DNA from: Candidatus Omnitrophota bacterium
GTDB lineage: Bacteria; Omnitrophota; Gorgyraeia; Gygaellales; Profunditerraquicolaceae
Reading direction: 5' to 3'
NCBI GenBank assembly: GCA_028710405.1
Contig: JAQTUD010000004.1
Coordinates: 1-34,173 of the forward strand
DNA: 34,173 nucleotides
This document shows, in pieces, positions 15,731 through 32,607 of this stretch (within the stretch, counting starts at the first letter, position 1; each line of letters begins with the position of its first letter). Under the pieces are notes generated by a model that saw nothing but the letters and a program-made list of their open reading frames with translations, did no database searches and was not told the DNA's origin. Both the position numbers and the translations under genes were made by a program.

Positions 15731-16669
15731 ATGAAGATAAAAGATACCGAGATTAAAGTCATCTGTGGCGATATTACGGAATTAAAGGTTGATGCCATTG
15801 TAAATGCCGCCAATAATAAGTTAGTGATGGGCGGGGGAGTGGCGGGGGCGATCAAAAGAAAGGGCGGCAAGAGCATTGAGGATGAGGCGGTAAAAGCTGG
15901 CCCGATAAAGATTGGCGAGGCGGTGGCGACCGGTGCGGGAAACCTGCCGGCCAAATATGTGATCCACGCCGCGACCATGGGGATGGACTTTCAGACCGAT
16001 GAGATAAAGATCCGGGATTCTGCAGCCAGCGCCCTGCGGGTCGCGCGGGAATTAAAAGTAAAATCAATTGCCTTTCCGGCTTTAGGTTGCGGCACAGGAG
16101 GCTTTCCGCTATTGGCCTCAGCAAAGGTGATGGCGCAAGAGGTCTTCCGGCAATTAAAAGAAGAGGAGGTGGGGCTTAAGGAAATAATCTTTTGTCTTTA
16201 TGATAAAGAAGCGCAGGAGGTTTTCCAGAAGGGAGTGATCGGTTACCTGGAATATATCACCCAGAAGTTGCAAAATGGCCCTTTTACCACGGTAGATGCG
16301 ATAATCGAGATTTCCGGGGGGATTGTAATAATTGAGCGCAGCAATCCGCCCTTTGGCTACGCGCTTCCCGGAGGTTTTGTGGATTATGGAGAGAGCCTGG
16401 AGGAGGCGGTAAAGAGAGAGGCCAAGGAGGAGACTAACCTGGATTTAGTGGGCCTGGAACAGTTCCACACTTATTCGGCACCGCAGCGTGACCCGCGTTT
16501 TCACACTATCGGGACGGTATTTATTGCCCAGGGCAAGGGAAACCCCAAGGCTGGCGATGACGCTAAGGCCTTGAAAATAGTGGAGTTAAAAGATATAGAA
16601 AAATTAGATTTTGCCTTTGACCATAAAGAGATCATCCGGGATTATATAAAAGCGGCCGTCTCGCGTTAG
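15731..16669 (+). CDS. Macro domain - NUDIX hydrolase fusion (ADP-ribose processing)
   Basis: N-terminal IKVICGDITELKVDAIVNAANNKLVMGGGVAGAIKRKGG is a macro domain. C-terminal GGFVDYGESLEEAVKREAKEETNL is a Nudix box. Confidence 0.75.
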   Translation: MKIKDTEIKVICGDITELKVDAIVNAANNKLVMGGGVAGAIKRKGGKSIEDEAVKAGPIKIGEAVATGAGNLPAKYVIHAATMGMDFQTDEIKIRDSAASALRVARELKVKSIAFPALGCGTGGFPLLASAKVMAQEVFRQLKEEEVGLKEIIFCLYDKEAQEVFQKGVIGYLEYITQKLQNGPFTTVDAIIEISGGIVIIERSNPPFGYALPGGFVDYGESLEEAVKREAKEETNLDLVGLEQFHTYSAPQRDPRFHTIGTVFIAQGKGNPKAGDDAKALKIVELKDIEKLDFAFDHKEIIRDYIKAAVSR

Positions 16670-16679
16670 GGGACACTGT

Positions 16680-16728
16680 CCCGATTGGATTGGAAACTGT
16701 TTCCCGATTGAAGCGGAAACAGTTTCCC
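16680..16728. promoter_or_regulatory. Tandem 23-bp direct repeat (2 units + partial), each junction forming the palindrome GGAAAC-N-GTTTCC (candidate operator/iteron-like sites)
   Basis: cccgattggattggaaactgttt / cccgattgaagcggaaacagttt / ccc. Palindromes at 16692-16704 and 16715-16727. Located 15-60 bp upstream of the -35 of the promoter at 16744. Confidence 0.45.
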
Positions 16729-16743
16729 AGGGTTTTGGCCTCT

Positions 16744-16771
16744 TGAAAAAAGCGGTAAAATATGTTATACT
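16744..16771 (+). promoter_or_regulatory. Sigma70-type promoter with extended -10
   Basis: -35 TTGAAA (16744-16749), 16-nt spacer, TGt-TATACT (TG 16763-16764, -10 16766-16771). Confidence 0.5.
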
Positions 16772-16777
16772 ATAGGT

Positions 16778-16947
16778 GTAAAAAGACACTTTGACAATTT
16801 GGTAAAAATGTCCTACTGAAAAAGGCAAACTAGCAGTAATGCTGGGGCGCAAAGCGACAGCCCCGACGTAAGTCGGGGGGCTGCGTTGCCAAAGAGGCTT
16901 GAAACCCTAAAGACTGCCTTTAGGGTTTATTTGTTTAGCCCTAAGTT
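16778..16947 (+). ncRNA. Candidate sRNA / structured leader of about 170 nt from promoter to first intrinsic terminator
   Basis: Transcript predicted from the promoter above. Contains an irregular hairpin of about 14 bp capped by GNRA tetraloop gtaa (16848-16891) and a 10-codon uORF (atg 16839..taa 16871). Ends at terminator 16913-16947. Confidence 0.35.
16913..16947 (+). terminator. Rho-independent terminator (11-bp stem + T-rich tail)
   Basis: aaaccctaaag-actgc-ctttagggttt followed by atttgttt. Confidence 0.6.
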
Positions 16948-17001
16948 TGCCTTAAGTTCAGAAAAAAGGTGAATTTAGGGCTTTTTTATTGGTAAAAACC
17001 A
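16947..17001 (+). terminator. Second tandem intrinsic terminator (stem agccctaa/ttagggct, long loop, T7 tail)
   Basis: agccctaa (16947-16954) ... ttagggct (16985-16992), then tttttta tt. Confidence 0.5.
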
Positions 17002-17048
17002 ACCCCACCAGCCACGGAAGGTGTTTTTAGAGAGGGGTCAGATGGTCC

Positions 17049-17072
17049 CGCCCTTTACAAAAGGGCGGGGCG
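17049..17072. promoter_or_regulatory. Perfect 9-bp inverted repeat CCCGCCCTT-tacaa-AAGGGCGGG immediately upstream of the RHH gene RBS (operator candidate or RNA hairpin)
   Basis: Seen directly. Followed by gcgcctGGAGGtgaatagatATG. Confidence 0.4.
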
Positions 17073-17089
17073 CCTGGAGGTGAATAGAT

Positions 17090-17353
17090 ATGAAAGAGAA
17101 GATAAATACCCACAGAGTAGTGACTTTTCTGACCCGGGAAGAATTAGATTTTTTGGATAAGCTGGAGAAGGATATGATGTTCTCCACGGGCAGGCATATC
17201 TCCCGTTCCCAGATCATCCAGGATATGGCCGGCCTGCTCACTGAGACCCAGATGGATGCATCAGGCGTAAAGGATGATACAGAATTACGCAGCAGGATAA
17301 TGCAGGCTATCGCTAAATTAGTCAAGGAAGAACAAGACAAAAACAGGGGGTAG
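17090..17353 (+). CDS. Ribbon-helix-helix (CopG/Arc/MetJ-like) DNA-binding protein
   Basis: HRVVTFLTREELDFLDKLEKDM...GRHISRSQIIQDMAGLL fits a beta-strand / helix A / G-x-S N-cap / helix B RHH pattern. GGAGG RBS. Confidence 0.65.
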   Translation: MKEKINTHRVVTFLTREELDFLDKLEKDMMFSTGRHISRSQIIQDMAGLLTETQMDASGVKDDTELRSRIMQAIAKLVKEEQDKNRG

Positions 17354-17357
17354 GCTG

Positions 17358-17549
17358 ATGAAAACCTACACTGAAGAAGCCAGGTTAAAGACATTAGCGT
17401 CTAAGGGGGGAGTAATGTATTTTCTGGTAGAGAAACCGGACCGGATCTACCGCGGAATGGTCTTATTATCCCCGGCGCACAACCATAACCGCAAGAGGAT
17501 CGTCTGTATGAAGGTATATAAGATAAATGAAGAAGGGAGGGCTAAATGA
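17358..17549 (+). CDS. Hypothetical 63-aa protein, translationally coupled downstream of the RHH gene
   Basis: AGGGGGTAGG RBS. ORF MKTYTEEARLKTLASKGGVMYFLVEKPDRIYRGMVLLSPAHNHNRKRIVCMKVYKINEEGRAK. No recognisable domain. Its stop overlaps the next ATG (ATGA). Confidence 0.45.
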   Translation: MKTYTEEARLKTLASKGGVMYFLVEKPDRIYRGMVLLSPAHNHNRKRIVCMKVYKINEEGRAK

Positions 17550-17656
17550 GGCGTTTTTCCCGTAGATCACACAAGAAGGCCAGAAAGAATGATAAAAAAC
17601 ACACCGGGTTCCTTGAGGCGCTCAGGCTTTATGCCGGTATGCCGGTGGAAGTATAA
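17546..17656 (+). CDS. Basic His/Arg/Lys-rich micropeptide (36 aa), paralog 1
   Basis: MRRFSRRSHKKARKNDKKHTGFLEALRLYAGMPVEV. GGGAGGG RBS 8 nt upstream. ATGA coupling to the upstream ORF. Confidence 0.4.
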   Translation: MRRFSRRSHKKARKNDKKHTGFLEALRLYAGMPVEV

Positions 17657-17671
17657 ACAGGAGGGATAAAA

Positions 17672-17770
17672 ATGAAGAGAACTCATCGCAGCGGGCACAA
17701 AAAACACAGGAGGCAGAAAAGACAATTTGGTATAATGGCCGCGTTAAAATGCATCTTCGGATGTCGGTAA
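17672..17770 (+). CDS. Basic His/Arg/Lys-rich micropeptide (32 aa), paralog 2
   Basis: MKRTHRSGHKKHRRQKRQFGIMAALKCIFGCR. GGAGGG RBS 7 nt upstream. Same frame as paralog 1, separated by TAA + 15 nt. Shares the M[RK]R..R[SR][SG]HKK[AH]R[KR] pattern. Confidence 0.4.
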   Translation: MKRTHRSGHKKHRRQKRQFGIMAALKCIFGCR

Positions 17771-17796
17771 ATCCCGGCACCCGTGGCGATGCCGCA

Positions 17797-17830
17797 AGGC
17801 CCGCTCTCGTTTGGGAGCGGGCCTTTTTAT
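17797..17830. terminator. Intrinsic terminator shared by the + strand micropeptide operon and the convergent helicase
   Basis: aggcccgctc-tcgtttgg-gagcgggcc followed by TTTTTATT on the + strand. The helicase stop codon lies inside the tail. Confidence 0.6.
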
Positions 17831-19707
17831 TATGCCTCGCGCAGCTGTTTCTCCGCGTCTATCACGTCGCGGTTAGTCACCCGGACAACCTCTTTTATTT
17901 TTTCTTTTAAGCCAGGCGAACATACCTTGGCATCCATGATCTCTCTTAAGATCTGTATCGCCATCCTGAAATAGCGCACTACTTCGCCCTCATCGGTATC
18001 AGTGAATTGTAATATCTTATCAAAGTTTGTCCCGCGCAGCCATCCTTCCATGCTTGAACTTAAATGAAAATACGGCTGTTTGCTAAAAGGATAAATCTTG
18101 TATTTCTGCTCCCGGTGTTTTATTAGTTCATATATCTCTTCGCAGGCATTTTTGACCTTATGGCCGGTCTTTGAGAGGCTGGTTACGCGTTGGTTCTTTC
18201 TGGGCTCAAAGACTGCCGCCGAGGCGATGATCCCTAAACCGAACTCATCTAATTGTTCCAGGATATTCTGGTCATAAAGTTCCGCCAGGATAAGCTCGTA
18301 ACCGTAGACATTCTTGGCGAATTGGCCTTTTTTGGTCAGGGCCCCTTTATCAATGTAACCCCATTCCTTAAGTAAATTTAATTTTGCCTCCATCAGCCTT
18401 AAGGCTTCTCTCTGGTGGTTTTTATGGGACTGGAAATAATGCAGCGATAGAGGATAGATTTTAAATAGCTCTTCTTTATGTTTTTCATAGAGGTTCAGGA
18501 TAGTAGCATAAGAAGTATTGAACTGGCTTCTGACCTGCTCGGCTCGGCCGTAAATAACGCGTTTTGCCTCGTCAAAATTTATGCGGTTTAAATTCAGGCG
18601 GCAGTAGACAAAACCTTCCTTGTCTATCCCCCGCCGTCCGGCGCGCCCGGCCATCTGGTAGAAATCCCGTGTTTTAAGATTACGCACATAGTGGCCGTAG
18701 AATTTGCGCAGTTCATCCAGGCATACCGAGCGGCTGGGCATATTTATCCCCAGGGCAAAGGTCTCGGTAGTGAATATGACTTTGAGCAGGCGGCTGGTAA
18801 ATAACCGTTCAATGACTTCTTTGAGGGTAGGAAGCATCCCGGCATGATGATAGGCAATACCCTGCTGTATGAGCGGATACATATTCTGCGCGCTGCGCTC
18901 GTGCTTTAAGTCAAAGCGTTCGCAGAGGGAGTTATACAGGTCGGTAATCTCGGCTCTTTCTTTGCCGTTAAGGAAATTAAAACTTTGTAATTCCTGGGCC
19001 AGGTCCTCGGCGCGCCTTCTCCCGAAGACAAAATAGATGCAAGGCAGGCCCTCCTTCTGGCGCAGGTAATTGATCAGCGTATTCATTTTATTCGGCCTGG
19101 CGAATTTGCCCCTTCTTACTTTGTCGATCTTGTCCACGATCTCATTTGAGCTCTGGAAGAAAAAGTGCAAGGGGACAGGGCGTTTCTCTTCAATTACCGT
19201 TTTTACCGGTTTATGGTGTATGGATTCTATCCAGGAGGCAAGTTCATTTATGTTGGGTATGGTTGCCGAGAGCGCCAGCAACTTCATATGTTTGGGAAGG
19301 AATATCAGGGATTCCTCCCAGACTGTCCCGCGCTCGGGATTGTCAATATAATGCACCTCGTCAAAGATGATCCAGGAGTACATCTGGAGGCTCTCCGGTT
19401 CATCCAGCACTTTATTACGGAAGATCTCGGTAGTCATGATCAATACTGGGGCCTGGGGGTTGATAGAGACATCCCCGGTCAATATACCGATGTTATCACC
19501 GAATTGCTGGTAGAAATCGCGGAATTTCTGGTTAGAGAGGGCTTTGATCGGGGCAGTGTAGATGACCCCCAGGTTATTCTGGATGGAGTTATTGATCACA
19601 TACTCGGCAATAGCGGTTTTTCCCGCTCCGGTGGGCGCCGAGACGATTACCGAACAGCCCTGGTTTATATAATCAATAGATTCCTCCTGGAAGCGGTCAT
19701 ATATCAT
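17830..19707 (-). CDS. SF2 DEVH-box helicase, Ski2/Hel308-like
   Basis: Motif I SAPTGAGKT, motif II DEVH, motif VI QMAGRAGRRG. 625 aa. Only minus-strand gene in the window. Confidence 0.8.
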   Translation of the reverse strand: MIYDRFQEESIDYINQGCSVIVSAPTGAGKTAIAEYVINNSIQNNLGVIYTAPIKALSNQKFRDFYQQFGDNIGILTGDVSINPQAPVLIMTTEIFRNKVLDEPESLQMYSWIIFDEVHYIDNPERGTVWEESLIFLPKHMKLLALSATIPNINELASWIESIHHKPVKTVIEEKRPVPLHFFFQSSNEIVDKIDKVRRGKFARPNKMNTLINYLRQKEGLPCIYFVFGRRRAEDLAQELQSFNFLNGKERAEITDLYNSLCERFDLKHERSAQNMYPLIQQGIAYHHAGMLPTLKEVIERLFTSRLLKVIFTTETFALGINMPSRSVCLDELRKFYGHYVRNLKTRDFYQMAGRAGRRGIDKEGFVYCRLNLNRINFDEAKRVIYGRAEQVRSQFNTSYATILNLYEKHKEELFKIYPLSLHYFQSHKNHQREALRLMEAKLNLLKEWGYIDKGALTKKGQFAKNVYGYELILAELYDQNILEQLDEFGLGIIASAAVFEPRKNQRVTSLSKTGHKVKNACEEIYELIKHREQKYKIYPFSKQPYFHLSSSMEGWLRGTNFDKILQFTDTDEGEVVRYFRMAIQILREIMDAKVCSPGLKEKIKEVVRVTNRDVIDAEKQLREA

Positions 19708-27013: not shown

Positions 27014-28285
27014 ATGTTTATTGTATATGACATAATATTTTTGATCATAGCGATATTTTTTCTGCCGGTGTATTTATTCCGCGGGAAATTCCACGGCGGA
27101 TTCTGGGCGCGGCTGGGATTCTTCTCCAAAGACCTGAAATTAGATAAACCCATCTGGGTGCACGCGGTGAGCGTGGGAGAGGCGATGGCCGCCAAGGAAT
27201 TAATCGCGGGGTTAAGAAAGGCCTATCCGGCAAAGAGGCTGGTTATCTCTACGGTTACGCCTACGGGGAATAAAATCGCCCGCGGCCTTGCCACCGAAAC
27301 AGACCTAGTGACTTATCTGCCCTTAGATTTCAGCTTTAGCGTGCGCACTGCCATAAAAAGAATAGACCCTTCTTTATTTATCATAGTTGAGACCGAACTC
27401 TGGCCGAATCTAATTAGTTATCTGCATAAGAAAAAAATCCCCGTAGTCATTGTCAACGGCAGGCTCTCCGATGATTCCTTCAGGGGTTATTCAGCGATAA
27501 AGTTCTTGTTAAAATCCGTGCTCAAAAAAGTGAGCCTTTTTTGCGTGCAGAGCGAGAATGATAAGCGTAAGTTAATCTCGCTGGGCGTAAGCCAGGAGGA
27601 TATTCAGGTTACCGGGAATATGAAGTTTGACGCCACCGGCCTTAAGATCGAGGCGAACACTCTTATCCAGTGCCGCCGGAATTTAGCGCTGGAGGAGACG
27701 GATAAGCTTTGGGTCTGCGGCTCAACACACCCCGGAGAAGAAAAGATGCTTCTTGAGGCCTATAAAAATTTACTCAAAAGTTACCCCGCGCTTAAGTTAC
27801 TGATCGCCCCGCGGCATCCGGAGCGCGCGCAGGAAGTGGCGGATTTAATAAAGCGTTTTAATTTTGAACCCGTAAGGTTAAGCCTGCTGAACTTAAGAAC
27901 TGAAGAACTAAAGAACTTAAGAGCTGTGTTTATCCTGGACACCGTCGGCCAGATGATGGATTACTACGCCCTGGCGGATATTGTTTTTGTCGGCGGCACT
28001 TTAGTTAAAAAGGGCGGGCATAATATTTTAGAGCCGGCCTCCCTGGGTAAAGCCATTCTCTTTGGGCCGTATATGTTCAATTTCCGGGATATCGCGGAGC
28101 TATTTTTAGCACGCCAGGCCGCGATTCTGGTGTATAATACCACGGAGTTAGAAAAAAAGATAAGCCAGCTCTTAGATGCTCCTTCCGGCGCGCTGGTATT
28201 AGCTCAGAGGGCAAGGGATACTATTACCTTGGGCTCCGGGGCTACGACAAGGAACCTGGAACTGATAAAGAGGTACGCGCGTTGA
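27014..28285 (+). CDS. waaA: 3-deoxy-D-manno-octulosonic acid (KDO) transferase
   Basis: N-terminal TM, ...IWVHAVSVGEAMAAKELI... and glycosyltransferase region typical of KdtA/WaaA. Confidence 0.85.
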   Translation: MFIVYDIIFLIIAIFFLPVYLFRGKFHGGFWARLGFFSKDLKLDKPIWVHAVSVGEAMAAKELIAGLRKAYPAKRLVISTVTPTGNKIARGLATETDLVTYLPLDFSFSVRTAIKRIDPSLFIIVETELWPNLISYLHKKKIPVVIVNGRLSDDSFRGYSAIKFLLKSVLKKVSLFCVQSENDKRKLISLGVSQEDIQVTGNMKFDATGLKIEANTLIQCRRNLALEETDKLWVCGSTHPGEEKMLLEAYKNLLKSYPALKLLIAPRHPERAQEVADLIKRFNFEPVRLSLLNLRTEELKNLRAVFILDTVGQMMDYYALADIVFVGGTLVKKGGHNILEPASLGKAILFGPYMFNFRDIAELFLARQAAILVYNTTELEKKISQLLDAPSGALVLAQRARDTITLGSGATTRNLELIKRYAR

Positions 28286-29487
28286 GCACGCCAAAGATCA
28301 AACGGATACTGATCATTTCTTCGGATAAAAGCCTGATCGACGTTTTGACTTTTTGTTTTGACGGATGGGGTTATGAGGTCTTTCTGCAGCATAATATGGC
28401 CCCGGACATAGATGTGATAAAGAGGGTATCTCCGGACGTGATCGTGGTGGATATTGACGCCGCGCACAAATCTGAAATCGGTATCTGCCGGACGCTAAAA
28501 GACGATTTTATGACCGCTTTCGTGCCGGTAATCGCGATCATCAATAAACGCCAGCTAAGGCAGCAGCTTCTGGATATCAGGCAGGGAGTGGATGATTACC
28601 TGATCAAGCCGCCTGACCCGCTGGACCTGCGCACCAGGGTCGAGATGGCGATCAAGAGGTCGCAGTATAGCATTTACACCAGCCCGCTTACCGGCCTGCC
28701 CGGCGGCAGGATCATTGAGGAGACCATTAAGGATAAGATAAAAGAAGGATTCCCGTTGTCGTTCGCACATCTTGATATAGACAATTTTAAATATTTCAAT
28801 GATGCCTACGGATACCTCAGGGGCGACAGGGTGATCATGCAGACTGCCTACCTGCTCTATGCCACCATTAAGAGGTTCGGTAATAACAGGGATTTTATCG
28901 GCCATATCGGCGGAGACGACTTTATGTTCATCAGCACCCCGGAAAAATGCGCGCAGATCTGCCATAATTTTATCCAACTCTTTGAGAAGGTGACTCCTTT
29001 TCATTATTCGTCCAAAGAGAGGGAGTGTGGTTTTATCGTAGCCAAGGACAGGGCGCGTAAGATAAAAGAGATCCCGCTGATGAGTATTTCTATAGCAATA
29101 GTGAATAAATCCGGGCCGCAGCATTTTAAGAACGCGGTGGAGATAAACGAGAAGATGGCGGAGATAAAATGTTATCTCAAGAGTATGCCGGGGAGTAAAT
29201 TTATGGCCGACCGCCGCAGCGCCACACCTGAATATGCGCAGGGCCCGCAATTCCGGCCCAAAGGAGAAAAGACAATCAGTTTATACAAGCCCCTGGGGCA
29301 GATCTTGATAGAGAGAAGCCTGGTTACTCCGGAGCAGCTTGATGAGGCACTCAAGACCCACTGGAAGAGGGGGGTTCAGCTGGGGGAGATCCTTAAGGAA
29401 TTGAAGCTTATCAGAGACATAGACCTACAGGAGGCATTAAAGGCGCAAGGGTCAATACCGCTTGCGCGTATTCAGGAGCAGCGATGA
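28282..29487 (+). CDS. Response-regulator receiver + degenerate GGDEF (GGDDF) + C-terminal MshEN-like tandem motif (putative c-di-GMP signalling/receptor protein); TTG start
   Basis: REC: RILIISSDKSL...DVIVVDID...VPVIAII. GGDEF-domain core with HIGGDDF. C-terminal PLGQILIERSLVTPEQLDEALKTH + QLGEILKELKLIRDIDLQEALKAQ resemble the 24-aa MshEN/T2SSE_N c-di-GMP-binding repeats. Confidence 0.7.
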   Translation: MSTPKIKRILIISSDKSLIDVLTFCFDGWGYEVFLQHNMAPDIDVIKRVSPDVIVVDIDAAHKSEIGICRTLKDDFMTAFVPVIAIINKRQLRQQLLDIRQGVDDYLIKPPDPLDLRTRVEMAIKRSQYSIYTSPLTGLPGGRIIEETIKDKIKEGFPLSFAHLDIDNFKYFNDAYGYLRGDRVIMQTAYLLYATIKRFGNNRDFIGHIGGDDFMFISTPEKCAQICHNFIQLFEKVTPFHYSSKERECGFIVAKDRARKIKEIPLMSISIAIVNKSGPQHFKNAVEINEKMAEIKCYLKSMPGSKFMADRRSATPEYAQGPQFRPKGEKTISLYKPLGQILIERSLVTPEQLDEALKTHWKRGVQLGEILKELKLIRDIDLQEALKAQGSIPLARIQEQR

Positions 29488-30902
29488 GAAAGATGCGTTT
29501 TATCTTTAGCAGTTTCTGTGTCAAGGTCATCATAACGCTTATTCTTTCTATATTTTTTGTTATGGCTTTAAGCAGCCTGCTTGTCTATAAATTTGCCCTG
29601 GATTCTCAATTCCATCAATTAAGGGAGAGGTTGAAGATAATCGCCTCTACCGCCGCGTTGATGGTGGATGCCGAGTCGCTTAAACAGGTCCCCTTGAACG
29701 CCGAGGGGATAAACAGCCCGGCTTATCTGGCTGTGGCCGCTAAGTTAAAAAAGATCAAAGAAGTAAATCCCACCCTGAAATATATTTATACCATGGCCAG
29801 GACCGATGATCCGCGTTTCCTACAATTCGTGGTTGACCCGGACCCCATGGTCAATGTCCGCGGCAAAACAACAGTTACTTCTTACCCTGGTGACAGGTAT
29901 GATACCATCTCTTGTCCGGATATAATTCAGGCCTTTGATGGGCCGGCCGCGGATAAGAAATTGGTAATTGACGATTGGGGGGTTTTTCTCTCCGGGTATG
30001 CCCCGGTTCATGATAAATCCGGCAGGGCGCAATACATCCTGGGCGTGGATATGGCAGCCCAAGATATCTATGCCTTGCAGGGGCAGGTAAGCCGCCGGGT
30101 GATGCTGGTGTTAGGCATCGGTTTTCTAATGTCGGTTCTTTTTGGGCTTTTTATTTCTTTCGGGATCACCAGCCGGATCAGGAAGCTGGTAGAGGGGACG
30201 CGGCGCATTGCTGCCGAAGACCTGGAATATAAAGTAGAAGTAAAGGGGCACGATGAGATCAGCGAATTAGCCAGCTCTTTTAACCTTATGGCCACCAGCC
30301 TTTCTGAATCCAAGGGCAGGCTGCAGGATTATTTCTACCGGGTAGTGCAGTCCCTGGTGCGCATCCTGGAAGCAAAGGATGCTTACACCAAGGGGCATTC
30401 GGATAGGGTTGCCAATTACGCCCAGGCGATCGCCCTGAATATGGGGTTTGCCCAGAACAAGGTAGAGCTTGTGAGAAAGGCCGCGCAGCTGCACGATATA
30501 GGAAAGTTGGCGGTCCATGAAGGCATCCTGAACAAAAAGGAGGCCCTTACCGAGGAGGAATGGAGAATTATCAAAGAGCATCCCATAATCGGGGAAGAGG
30601 TATTAAAGCCGGTCCTGCTGGATGAGGAGATGTTGTCTATGGTCAGGTCGCATCATGAGCGTTACGACGGGGGCGGATATCCCGACAAGATAAAAGGCGA
30701 CGCGATAAATATTTTTGCCCAGATAATTTCCGTGGCTGACGCTTATGACGCCATGACCTCTCCGCGCGCATACCGAGAAGCCAGGGATAAAGAAAAAGCC
30801 ATAACGGAATTAAAAAATAATAGTGGCAGCCAGTTTAATACCCAGGTAGTAAAGGCATTCCTTAAAGTATTGGCCCAGCAAGAAAAGGAGGCAGGGAAAT
30901 GA
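29484..30902 (+). CDS. Membrane sensor HD-GYP phosphodiesterase (periplasmic sensor-TM-HAMP-HD-GYP)
   Basis: Two TMs flanking an approximately 170-aa periplasmic domain, HAMP-like linker, HD...LHDIGK...HHERYDGGGYPD HD-GYP motifs. Confidence 0.8.
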   Translation: MRKMRFIFSSFCVKVIITLILSIFFVMALSSLLVYKFALDSQFHQLRERLKIIASTAALMVDAESLKQVPLNAEGINSPAYLAVAAKLKKIKEVNPTLKYIYTMARTDDPRFLQFVVDPDPMVNVRGKTTVTSYPGDRYDTISCPDIIQAFDGPAADKKLVIDDWGVFLSGYAPVHDKSGRAQYILGVDMAAQDIYALQGQVSRRVMLVLGIGFLMSVLFGLFISFGITSRIRKLVEGTRRIAAEDLEYKVEVKGHDEISELASSFNLMATSLSESKGRLQDYFYRVVQSLVRILEAKDAYTKGHSDRVANYAQAIALNMGFAQNKVELVRKAAQLHDIGKLAVHEGILNKKEALTEEEWRIIKEHPIIGEEVLKPVLLDEEMLSMVRSHHERYDGGGYPDKIKGDAINIFAQIISVADAYDAMTSPRAYREARDKEKAITELKNNSGSQFNTQVVKAFLKVLAQQEKEAGK

Positions 30903-31864
30903 AAGCCGTAGAGATAACCGCCAAGGACCTCAGGCCGGAAGATTTCATTAAAGAAAAAGTAAAAGATATTTCTCAGGCGGTTGGTCAAGGCCTGGCGATC
31001 AACGCGCTCTCCGGAGGAGTGGATTCCTCCGCGGTCACTATGCTGGGGCACAAGGCCCTGGGGGATAGGTTAAAGACCTATTTCATCAATAACGGCATTA
31101 TGCGCCAGGGGGAGCCGGAAGAGATAGTTTCTATATTCAAGAGATTAGGCGTGCCCGTGGAAGTCATCGACGCCCAGGATAATTTTTTCTCGGCCTTAAA
31201 AGGGGTTACTGACCCGGAGAAGAAGAGGGAGGCGATCACCCAGACTTTCTACAAAGATGTATTTGCTGAGCTGGTGAAAAAGAGCGGCGCCAAATATCTG
31301 CTCCAGGGCACGATCCTTACTGATGTGGATGAAACAGTCGCCGGGATAAAAAGACAACACAATGTCTTTATGCAATTAGGCATAGACCCGCAGGCAGCTT
31401 TCGGATATAAAATTATTGAGCCACTGGTTGAGTTGCGTAAGGATGGAGTAAGAAAAGTCGCTGCGGCCTTAGGGATGCCGGAGAAGATATATAACCGTAT
31501 GCCTTTTCCCGGCCCGGCTTTAGCTGCCAGGGTCATCGGGGAGGCTACTCCGGAGAGGATAAAGGTGGCCAGGCTCGCCACCATGATCGTGGAAGAAGAG
31601 TTATCCGCAAGCCGGGCCTTTCAGTACATGGCAATTTTACATCAGGATAGGGTCACCGGCATGCGGGATGGTAAAAGGGACTTTGGTCTGCAGATTGAAA
31701 TCCGCTCCTGGGATAGCACTGACGCCCGGAAAGCCCAGCCGACCAGATTACCATATGAAATCTTAGATAAACTGGCCAGCCGGATAGTCGGGGAGGTCCC
31801 GGGAGTAGTAAGCGTTACTTATAATATTACCCAGAAGCCGCCTTCTACTATAGAGGCGGTTTAA
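30899..31864 (+). CDS. guaA: Stand-alone GMP synthase ATP-pyrophosphatase (PP-loop) subunit, GuaA C-terminal-domain homologue
   Basis: PP-loop SGGVDSS, ...QGTILTDVDE..., dimerisation domain MPFPGPALAARVIGE. No glutamine amidotransferase domain in this ORF. Confidence 0.7.
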   Translation: MKAVEITAKDLRPEDFIKEKVKDISQAVGQGLAINALSGGVDSSAVTMLGHKALGDRLKTYFINNGIMRQGEPEEIVSIFKRLGVPVEVIDAQDNFFSALKGVTDPEKKREAITQTFYKDVFAELVKKSGAKYLLQGTILTDVDETVAGIKRQHNVFMQLGIDPQAAFGYKIIEPLVELRKDGVRKVAAALGMPEKIYNRMPFPGPALAARVIGEATPERIKVARLATMIVEEELSASRAFQYMAILHQDRVTGMRDGKRDFGLQIEIRSWDSTDARKAQPTRLPYEILDKLASRIVGEVPGVVSVTYNITQKPPSTIEAV

Positions 31865-31881
31865 CTTCAGATAGGATAAAG

Positions 31882-32607
31882 ATGCCATTAGAGATAAGAG
31901 TAGGGCAGAAGAATAATATCATCAAGTTGGACCTGGCCGGCCGCATTGATATAGACTCCGCAAACCTCATTGAGGTCATCGGACAATGCCTGCACGACGG
32001 ATACACCGATATACTCTGTAATTTTGAAGAAGTGGAGTTTATTGATTATATGGGTGTTTCGCTGATCGTGGTTGCCTACAAAGAGATCGCCAATAACCGC
32101 GGGAGGATGAAATTCCTGAATATCCCGACGCATCTTAGGGGGATATTCTCTATCTGCGGGTTGGATAAGATCATTGAAATATACGCCGAAGAGGACGCGG
32201 CGGTAAATAGTTTTAGCGAGGATAAGGCGATAGAGAATATCAAGAAGATGCAGTTACGGCGCCGCTTTAAGCGCCTGCCTATTGATATCAAGGTGGAGTT
32301 GAAAGCTGTTCAGCAGAATAGCCCGGCTTGTTATAAGGTAGATATACTGGATTTAAGCGGAGTAGGCGCGTATATATTCGGCTGTGATAAATTCAAGCTG
32401 GGTGATGATGTGGTGATAAGGCTGAAGCTTTCCCCCAAACAGGAGCAGATAGACCTGGAGGCCAGGGTAGTCTGGCTCTCCGACAAACAGGTGCAGCATC
32501 AGATCCACCCCGGGATGGGAGTGGAATTCCGTAATATTCCCACCACCCTGCAGCAGAAACTCGTGGAATTCATTGAAAGAAACCTCTCTTTTACCTCTAC
32601 GGAATAA
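31882..32607 (+). CDS. STAS (anti-sigma-factor antagonist-like) - PilZ fusion protein
   Basis: N-terminal STAS (IKLDLAGRIDIDSAN...EVEFIDYMGVSLIV...). C-terminal PilZ with RRRFKR (RxxxR) and DLSGVGAYI (DxSxxG). Confidence 0.7.
   Translation: MPLEIRVGQKNNIIKLDLAGRIDIDSANLIEVIGQCLHDGYTDILCNFEEVEFIDYMGVSLIVVAYKEIANNRGRMKFLNIPTHLRGIFSICGLDKIIEIYAEEDAAVNSFSEDKAIENIKKMQLRRRFKRLPIDIKVELKAVQQNSPACYKVDILDLSGVGAYIFGCDKFKLGDDVVIRLKLSPKQEQIDLEARVVWLSDKQVQHQIHPGMGVEFRNIPTTLQQKLVEFIERNLSFTSTE

Follow-up and report, generated by a model that had tools for sequence, protein, structure and literature searches.

A predicted c-di-GMP-I riboswitch with tandem terminators in the leader of a small-protein operon of Omnitrophota

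An intergenic region of the 34,173-nucleotide (nt) contig JAQTUD010000004.1 from a Candidatus Omnitrophota bacterium (assembly GCA_028710405.1; the whole stretch is called the window below) had been put down, in a preliminary description, as either a free-standing small RNA (sRNA) or an attenuator-type leader. Here, we propose that this region serves as the 5' leader of an operon of four small-protein genes (open reading frames ORF1 to ORF4) and that it contains a canonical class I riboswitch for cyclic diguanylate (c-di-GMP). The riboswitch probably works as an OFF switch, through two tandem terminators, T1 and T2, and through antiterminators made with the aptamer strand that carries the pocket nucleotide G20. 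The riboswitch family is a known one. What is new is its occurrence in a little-studied phylum together with a conserved small-protein operon.

Results

The leader contains a c-di-GMP-I aptamer

The Rfam scan of the whole window gave a single match, to the c-di-GMP-I (GEMM-I) family RF01051, at 16814-16893 on the + strand. It scored 73.3 bits (E = 9e-13, model positions 1-87), while the gathering cut-off of the family is 35 bits. The preliminary description had recognised no known riboswitch consensus here and had named an Rfam scan as the check, with reclassification of the element in the case of a known family. The scan returned such a family, and we reclassify the element. The alignment to RF01051 runs in the order GGCAAAC junction, P2, GC clamp, CGCAAAGC junction, P3 and closing UGCC. 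Placed through the Rfam consensus, the binding pocket is canonical, and we take G16824, A16851 and C16889 to be the equivalents of G20, A47 and C92 in the Vc2 structure. These three columns were invariant in all 22 aligned aptamers, the window included.

RNAalifold recovered the clamp, P2 and P3 from the 22 aptamers. Compensatory changes were observed in 14 of the 19 pairs, and all six P2 pairs covary. P1 is composed of a proximal UG:CA and a distal helix of 3-6 base pairs (bp) across the relatives; in the window it is weak (UG:CA and CCU:AGG). P1 covaries as well, with a duplex energy of -4.86 kcal/mol for own partners versus -3.75 kcal/mol for permuted ones, and none of 5000 permutations was as good. 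Examples of compensatory changes are CACC:GGUG, GUGC:GUAC, CAUUG:CAAUG and CUC:GAG.

No 11-nt tetraloop receptor was found in P3, as the model positions that would hold it are deleted in the RF01051 alignment; the receptor is a trait of type 1 aptamers and membership in the family does not need it. A P3 without the receptor corresponds to the 'type 2' GEMM subclass. Judged by its sequence, the aptamer is a canonical c-di-GMP-I riboswitch in the receptor-less form with a GYRA (GUAA) loop. The GC-rich, GUAA-capped hairpin of the preliminary description is real and turned out to be the P3 arm of this three-helix aptamer, while a second GUAA loop caps P2 (Table 1).

The window also carries genes for a REC-GGDEF protein (28282-29487), a HAMP-HD_5 protein of the HD-GYP type (29484-30902) and a STAS-PilZ protein (31882-32607), which means that the organism has enzymes and a receptor for c-di-GMP. 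A GMP-synthase-C/NAD-synthase-like gene (30899-31864) sits within this cluster (28282-32607). The REC-GGDEF, HAMP-HD_5 and GMP-synthase-C-like genes are overlapping or adjoining and seem to form a single operon.

The aptamer is linked in cis to the ORF1 family

We found 107 homologues of ORF1, and those with an organism name given by the source were all from Omnitrophota. The alignment of the ORF1 relatives yielded 30 genome and 80 metagenome loci (numbered with the prefix L), which are the related loci referred to throughout. At least ~400 nt of upstream sequence was available for 96 loci, and in 87 of these Rfam and pattern search detected an aptamer of the c-di-GMP-I clan 5' of the ORF1 homologue and on its strand. 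A consensus scan of the window showed no promoter-like site between T2 and ORF1. The leader measures 312 nt from the predicted transcription start near 16778 to the ORF1 ATG at 17090. The attenuator-type leader of ~310 nt, one of the two options in the preliminary description, was essentially right, except that its sensor of a known family had been missed. The other option, a free-standing sRNA as the sole function, is disfavoured by the same gene family downstream and by the lack of a promoter-like site between T2 and the ORF.

A related possibility is that the locus produces a stand-alone riboswitch sRNA of ~157-210 nt, a sponge or reservoir for c-di-GMP, with secondary or no control of the ORFs. 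We consider this unlikely. In its favour, the promoter is near consensus and has an extended -10, the tandem terminators make a discrete short product very likely, and the gap between T2 and the ORF is ~100-360 nt in many loci. There is also a precedent in merRNA of Bdellovibrio bacteriovorus, an abundant non-coding c-di-GMP riboswitch RNA proposed to serve for storage (PMC3627812). Like merRNA, the locus has a strong promoter and would yield a short RNA of defined size that may be abundant, and any terminated aptamer RNA holds c-di-GMP. However, merRNA was defined without a conserved downstream ORF (PMC3627812), whereas here a conserved operon follows in ~91% of loci, and no promoter-like site was seen between T2 and ORF1. 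Moreover, the complements between the terminators and the junction strands of the aptamer, described below, fit conditional and not constitutive terminators. The terminated RNAs of ~157 and ~210 nt are still expected as products of the riboswitch when the ligand is present.

Two conserved terminators follow the aptamer

T1 was called by the consensus scan (hairpin 16902-16928) and T2 was seen in the minimum free energy (MFE) fold. The two back-to-back terminators of the preliminary description are real; only their coordinates had to be corrected, to 16902-16936 and 16937-16990. Among 64 non-identical leaders, one terminator after the aptamer was found in 18 and two or more in 46, typically as a T1/T2 pair. 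The sequence of the stems is unusually conserved across the leaders (T1 approximately AACCYUNAR/YUNARGGUU, T2 approximately GCCCUWAG/CUWAGGGC), and the apexes bear UUUGCC or GCUUUGC. The MFE fold of the leader is far below that of shuffled sequences (z = -6.2; 0 of 100 shuffles were as stable). Both terminators are clear of the aptamer and of P1, and the full-length MFE structure contains the aptamer, T1 and T2 together. Since the aptamer is compatible with both terminators, the geometry is that of an OFF switch.

Other explanations for the two hairpins were tried and rejected. The palindrome CCCTAA..TTAGGG occurs twice in the 34-kb window, in T1 and T2 only, versus 0.19 expected occurrences, and this restriction argues against copies of a genome-wide palindromic repeat. 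In a trp-style attenuator (1:2/2:3/3:4), the T1 3' arm UUUAGGG would pair with the T2 5' arm CCCUAA; this is feasible in the window but is not conserved. Most relatives have ACCUUGAG/CUCAAGGU in T1 and GCCCUAAG/CUUAGGGC in T2, and by inspection these do not cross-pair. Sub-threshold Rfam matches to Spy779816, RybB and WT1-AS_5 over T1/T2 and the hairpin next to the Shine-Dalgarno sequence (SD) were far under the gathering scores and reflect a terminator-like shape only.

The terminators are complementary to the ligand-binding strands

T2 contains AGUUUGCCUU (16944-53), a perfect 10-nt complement of AAGGCAAACU (16822-31) in the aptamer (p = 0.005 versus dinucleotide shuffles). A second segment of T2, GCCCU (16938-42), can also pair with the aptamer, at GGGGC (16844-48). 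In T1, UGCCUUU (16915-21) is complementary over 7 nt to AAAGGCA (16821-27).

When terminators were compared with their own aptamers, the longest ungapped Watson-Crick run had a mean of 7.4-7.8 nt, versus 5.9-6.2 nt for dinucleotide shuffles, and 27 of 106 terminators reached p <= 0.05. In 81% of terminators versus 59% of shuffles, this run is located on the G20 strand (AAAGGCAAAC) or on the A47 strand (ACGCAAAGC) (binomial p ~1e-6, with kinship ignored); the shuffles reach 59% because the junction strands are A-rich and the terminators U-rich. The complement in the terminator follows the variable first bases of P2 (AGGCAAACUC/GAGUUUGCCU; GGCAAACCAAG/CUUGGUUUGCC). The flanks of the G20 helix covary, with 4.68 Watson-Crick pairs for own partners versus 4.20 for permuted ones (26 of 2000 permutations as good), and at position +7 U:A changes to C:G. 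About a quarter of the relatives with two terminators have one terminator aimed at the G20 strand and the other at the A47 strand; in the window both target G20.

We also followed the MFE structures of growing transcripts. The pairing of T1 with the G20 strand was optimal at the 3' end 16922. For 3' ends from 16956 to 16975, the MFE structure was a three-way junction in which the 10-bp helix meets GGGGC:GCCCU and a shorter P2. Each terminator replaced its antiterminator once its own 3' arm was present.

Pairing of the P1 3' strand (GAGGn) with n'CCUC at the T1 loop had looked covarying by eye. It was rejected as the main antiterminator, being the best site in few terminators only, and we retain it as a minor possibility.

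From this arrangement we infer that the switch is OFF with ligand, which helices act as antiterminators and in what order the events follow in time. The junction that would hold c-di-GMP is made of AAAGGCAAAC (G20 strand), CGCAAAGC (A47 strand) and C92. The ligand would fix the G20 and A47 strands in the core and stabilise P1, the terminator apexes would be left without a competitor, and transcripts would stop at ~16936 (~157 nt) or ~16990 (~210 nt). When the ligand is absent, the free G20 strand would pair with the T1 apex (7 bp) and later with T2, at its 5' arm and loop (10 bp and GGGGC:GCCCU in the three-way junction). The antiterminators would form ahead of each terminator 3' arm, and the polymerase would read into ORF1-ORF4. 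The second terminator may simply reduce leakage, or it may offer the ligand another period in which to act. Relatives whose T1 and T2 target different strands could have both terminators antiterminated simultaneously; in the window the two would be antiterminated one after the other.

Several points weigh against this mechanism. The 7-nt complement in T1 of the window is not significant alone (p = 0.125), and the location signal on the junction strands is to be considered moderate, as shuffled terminators also fall there in 59% of cases; the loci are, in addition, phylogenetically related. The partner-permutation test gave no covariation for the A47-strand helix (679 of 2000), and gapped RNAduplex energies between terminator and aptamer were no better than those of shuffles (z ~0). 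The full-length RNA thermodynamically favours the terminators even without the ligand, which makes the model dependent on folding kinetics. Between T2 and ORF1 there is a further ~100 nt of conserved leader, with a box and a hairpin, that the riboswitch does not explain. In the one dual-terminator c-di-GMP-I riboswitch studied so far, Bc1, T2 was constitutive and the switch gave no response to c-di-GMP in vivo (PMC11218506). Ligand binding, termination and its direction are predictions.

Bc1 comes from Bacillus thuringiensis (B. cereus group). In it, c-di-GMP unfolds T1 and leaves T2 intact, and a translational effect and binding of Zur were reported (PMC11218506). A dual-terminator c-di-GMP-I platform is thus already published, and its authors noted that a dual terminator in a single expression platform is rarely seen (PMC11218506). 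A review of tandem riboswitches describes multi-aptamer arrangements of c-di-GMP-I, and the single-aptamer dual-terminator form is not among them (PMC9481103). Like Bc1, the leader in the window has one c-di-GMP-I aptamer followed by a weak and a strong rho-independent terminator in one lineage-conserved platform. Beyond the aptamer the two platforms share no sequence homology, and the terminators of Bc1 are 28 bp apart, whereas here T2 begins right after the U-tract of T1.

Could the terminators in the window be insensitive to the ligand or respond in the opposite sense, under constitutive or protein control, as in Bc1? Bc1 is the sole characterised c-di-GMP-I case with a weak-strong pair and was unresponsive in vitro and in vivo (PMC11218506), the order of the two terminators is identical in the window, and the operator-like 8-nt repeats and the conserved box described below suggest extra protein inputs. 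Nevertheless, we give this possibility a low probability. In contrast to an ON design, T1 and T2 are both clear of the aptamer and P1, and in the window it is T2 that matches the ligand-binding strand best, a pattern that recurs across the loci with some covariation. Unlike Bc1, a platform with both terminators clear of the aptamer and complementary to the ligand strands predicts ligand-promoted termination at both.

The binding pocket points to c-di-GMP as the ligand

Nineteen orthologous leaders were best matched by models of variant families, 17 by RF03167 (c-di-GMP-I-GGC) and two by RF03168 (c-di-GMP-I-UAU). These were L001-L003, L007, L011, L016-L019, L024, L026-L029, L041, L049, L069, L082 and L098, with scores just above the gathering thresholds of the variant models (59-69 bits). 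According to the Rfam consensus, the GGC variant has G in place of A47 (GCGAAG) as its defining feature, and the UAU variant has U at positions 20 and 92. The lead to a variant pocket was dropped: the window and its relatives keep GCAAAG, G20 and C92, and pocket substitutions were not seen. What the leaders share with the RF03167 and RF03168 families is the short P3 without tetraloop receptor, and it is this feature, not an altered pocket, that makes many of them score slightly higher there; neither G47 nor the U20 and U92 pair of substitutions occurs in the window or in any of the 22 aligned relatives.

Since the pocket columns are invariant, the ligand should be c-di-GMP. It is very improbable that the aptamer senses another ligand, either c-AMP-GMP (cyclic AMP-GMP) or that of the GGC and UAU families, as the 19 variant assignments would have it. 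G20, A47 and C92 are kept in all 22 aligned aptamers and also in two of the leaders so assigned (L016 and L029), the best model for the window itself is RF01051, and the changed pocket nucleotide known from c-AMP-GMP variants (PMC9481103) is not seen here.

The upstream ORF of ten codons (uORF, MLGRKATAPT) in the preliminary description does exist, at 16839-16871. It is incidental and lies inside the aptamer, with its ATG derived from the GUAAUG of loop and stem. Attenuation by this leader peptide or by a protein, with no small-molecule sensing, is the least probable explanation of all, for although the hairpin region does include a short ORF and is followed by two terminators, the uORF has no SD, lies wholly in an aptamer conserved by RNA pairing and not by codons, loses its ATG in relatives with another P2 stem sequence, and meets an Rfam score that leaves little room for any other reading.

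The leader has further conserved elements

The Macro-NUDIX gene upstream ends at 16669, and the next 420 nt (16670-17089) have no + strand ORF of at least 30 amino acids (aa), in agreement with the statement of the preliminary description that no plausible long ORF is present. The consensus scan gave the promoter 10 of 12 matches and an extended -10 TG. The promoter had been described correctly, including its extended -10, except for the spacer, which is 17 nt and not 16 nt. In related loci, TTGACA/TTGAAA-16/17-TGnTATACT recurs 5' of the aptamer, and the -10 is ~52 nt from G20 in 32 of 59 leaders in a strict scan.

Just 3' of the predicted start there are direct repeats (Table 1). Tandem Repeats Finder found no tandem repeat at 16785-16802, where the array of ~2 copies is too short. 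Related loci have 1.5-6 tandem 8-nt (T)TGACAWWT units between the -10 and the aptamer (three in L095, ~6 in L023; also in L008, L016 and L019). MetJ-like metboxes are arrays of 8-bp repressor operators, and the tandem 8-bp units at the start site are reminiscent of such an operator. The array may serve as an operator or as a protein-binding site in the RNA. On the - strand, a promoter-like site, TTGTCA-17-TATAGT (10/12, 16769-16797), overlaps the + strand promoter and the repeats. The TTGACAA repeat together with the TATACTATA palindrome gives rise to this site, and it would run antisense into the end of the Macro-NUDIX gene.

The conserved box is found between T2 and ORF1. Its exact core, CCAGCCACGG, occurs in 27 of the 110 loci, once per locus and always on the + strand. 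The box lies between T2 and ORF1 in the subclade of the window, and after ORF1, before a secreted-protein gene, in L076 (1683-1700). By coordinates it is also after ORF1 in L070, L072, L074, L075 and L077. Since its position varies, the box is a portable element of the untranslated regions of the operon and not a part of the riboswitch. It had no Rfam match and no covarying partner. As an anti-SD, it gave only six invariant pairs with the SD region in RNAalifold, with no covariation. A promoter was rejected for the spacing to the next element, which varies from 12 to 20 nt, and a small ORF for a frame that is not conserved and for the position after ORF1 in some loci.

The GC-rich stem-loop next to the box abuts the SD and leaves it unpaired. 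Hairpins of other sequence were found at this position in 13 of the 17 box-bearing leaders. A hairpin insert of ~60-80 nt, CCCCGTTAGAAA...TTTCTAACGGGG, was observed in or beside the CCAGCCACG box in L009 (2800-2890), L001, L050 and L053, and in L009 it is flanked by duplicated CCAGCC. The insert resembles a small hairpin element of a mobile or expandable kind. A comparable unit, CCCCGTTAGA...TCTAACGGGG, is present upstream of the aptamers of L013 and L051. In L011, an nhaA-I (Na+) riboswitch match (808-859) lies ~1.7 kb upstream of the c-di-GMP aptamer.

The operon encodes small proteins without a known family

ORF2 follows ORF1 in 32 loci, and ORF3 was found in 42, where its homologues usually come after ORF2 but are upstream of ORF1 in L088 and L090. 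ORF3 and ORF4 are paralogues, both very basic (32-36 aa) and hydrophobic in their C-terminal half. Where the contigs are long, a further protein without known domain is encoded after ORF1 and ORF2.

ORF1 gave no Pfam or NCBIfam match even at E <= 10 across 40 family members, and none of its 107 relatives has a Pfam domain. The best hit of the PDB profile search was a de novo designed protein (E = 0.2), and the best Foldseek hit against PDB was not significant (E = 2.2). The AlphaFold2 monomer model (predicted local distance difference test, pLDDT, 74) shows an unstructured N-terminus and then three helices. The preliminary description had labelled the genes as a ribbon-helix-helix (RHH) operon. 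A strand-helix-helix pattern is readable by eye in ORF1; the label itself is unsupported by Pfam, NCBIfam, PDB profiles and Foldseek. The RHH strand forms only in the dimer, so an ORF1 dimer may still have an RHH ribbon that the monomer model would not show. A phage or defence origin of ORF1-ORF4 was rejected, as there was no PHROG or PADLOC match.

The upstream neighbour of the locus is a gene for a Macro-NUDIX fusion protein (15731-16669). The downstream neighbour, a Ski2-like DEAD/DSHCT helicase gene on the - strand (17830-19707), is convergent on the terminator of the operon.

Table 1. Positions of the leader elements and operon genes in the window
Feature	Position	Strand	Description
Sigma-70-type promoter	16743-16771	+	-35 TTGAAA 16743-48; 17-nt spacer; TG 16763-64; -10 TATACT 16766-71
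Direct repeats	16785-16802	+	two 8-nt copies and partial third (GACACTTT GACAATTT GG), just 3' of predicted start
c-di-GMP-I aptamer	16814-16893 (16812-16897 with P1)	+	RF01051
P1 5' strand	16812-16818	+	CCUACUG; distal CCU 16812-14:AGG 16895-97; proximal UG 16817-18:CA 16890-91
GC clamp	16825-26:16849-50	+	
P2	16830-16845	+	GUAA loop 16836-39
P3	16853-16887	+	GUAA loop 16868-71; GG bulge 16879-80
P1 3' strand	16890-16897	+	CAAAGAGG
Terminator T1 (weak)	16902-16936	+	stem AAACCCUAAAG/CUUUAGGGUUU 16902-12/16918-28; loop ACUGC; interrupted U-tract AUUUGUUU 16929-36; free energy (dG) -13.2
Terminator T2 (strong)	16937-16990	+	stem AGCCCUAAG...UUUAGGGCU 16937-82; U6 tail UUUUUUAUU to 16990; dG -22.4
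Conserved box	17005-17022	+	CCACCAGCCACGGAAGGU; core CCAGCCACGG 17008-17017
Bipartite GC-rich stem-loop	17035-17075	+	outer GGGU:GCCU 17035-38/17072-75; inner 12 bp 17045-56/17060-71; dG -23.9, z = -2.9
SD and ORF1 start	17076-17092	+	SD GGAGGUG 17076-82, ATG 17090; read from the sequence; CCUGGAGGUG conserved in relatives
ORF1	17090-17353	+	87 aa
ORF2	17358-17549	+	63 aa
ORF3	17546-17656	+	36 aa; MRRFSRRSHKKARKNDKKHTGFLEALRLYAGMPVEV
ORF4	17672-17770	+	32 aa; MKRTHRSGHKKHRRQKRQFGIMAALKCIFGCR; ORF3-like basic peptide
Operon-end intrinsic terminator	17796-17825	+	strong; 13 bp, 9 GC pairs, U-tract

Discussion

The element, first seen as an apparent orphan sRNA, is reclassified here as a standard second-messenger riboswitch and is not a new RNA. 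It shares with the RF01051 riboswitches of Vibrio cholerae (Vc2) and Clostridioides difficile (Cd1) the P1/P2/P3 architecture, the GNRA loop on P2 and G20, A47 and C92. It also shares their site in a 5' untranslated region with an intrinsic terminator after it, and a host with GGDEF, HD-GYP and PilZ proteins. It differs from them in its GUAA (GYRA) loop on P2, its P3 without the 11-nt receptor and its short, bipartite P1. The host, a member of the Omnitrophota, and the regulated genes, which code for orphan small proteins, are different too.

The 19 variant assignments have a practical side. Competition within the Rfam clan likely mis-annotates canonical aptamers in Omnitrophota genomes, and the pocket nucleotides should be inspected before a variant call is accepted.

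The two terminators allow a more far-reaching and tentative idea, which we regard as possible and less likely than not to hold in full. Each of the tandem terminators may be keyed to a junction strand in a two-checkpoint platform, layered with the TTGACAAT array and the CCAGCCACGG box, and the operon proteins may be direct effectors of c-di-GMP. If this is true, the polymerase would be challenged twice, the ligand would get two chances, and an Omnitrophota-specific small-protein operon would be under multi-input control. The related loci provide ~60 natural variants of a single-aptamer dual-terminator platform, a design studied so far only in Bc1, and these could be used to find out if a second terminator makes the response sharper or broader.

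For the organism, our results mean that c-di-GMP riboswitch control is probably present in Omnitrophota, a candidate phylum known here from metagenome-assembled genome and metagenome sequences only. The riboswitch points to one conserved target there, an operon of 32-92-aa proteins without family, and this target is a handle on what c-di-GMP controls in the phylum.

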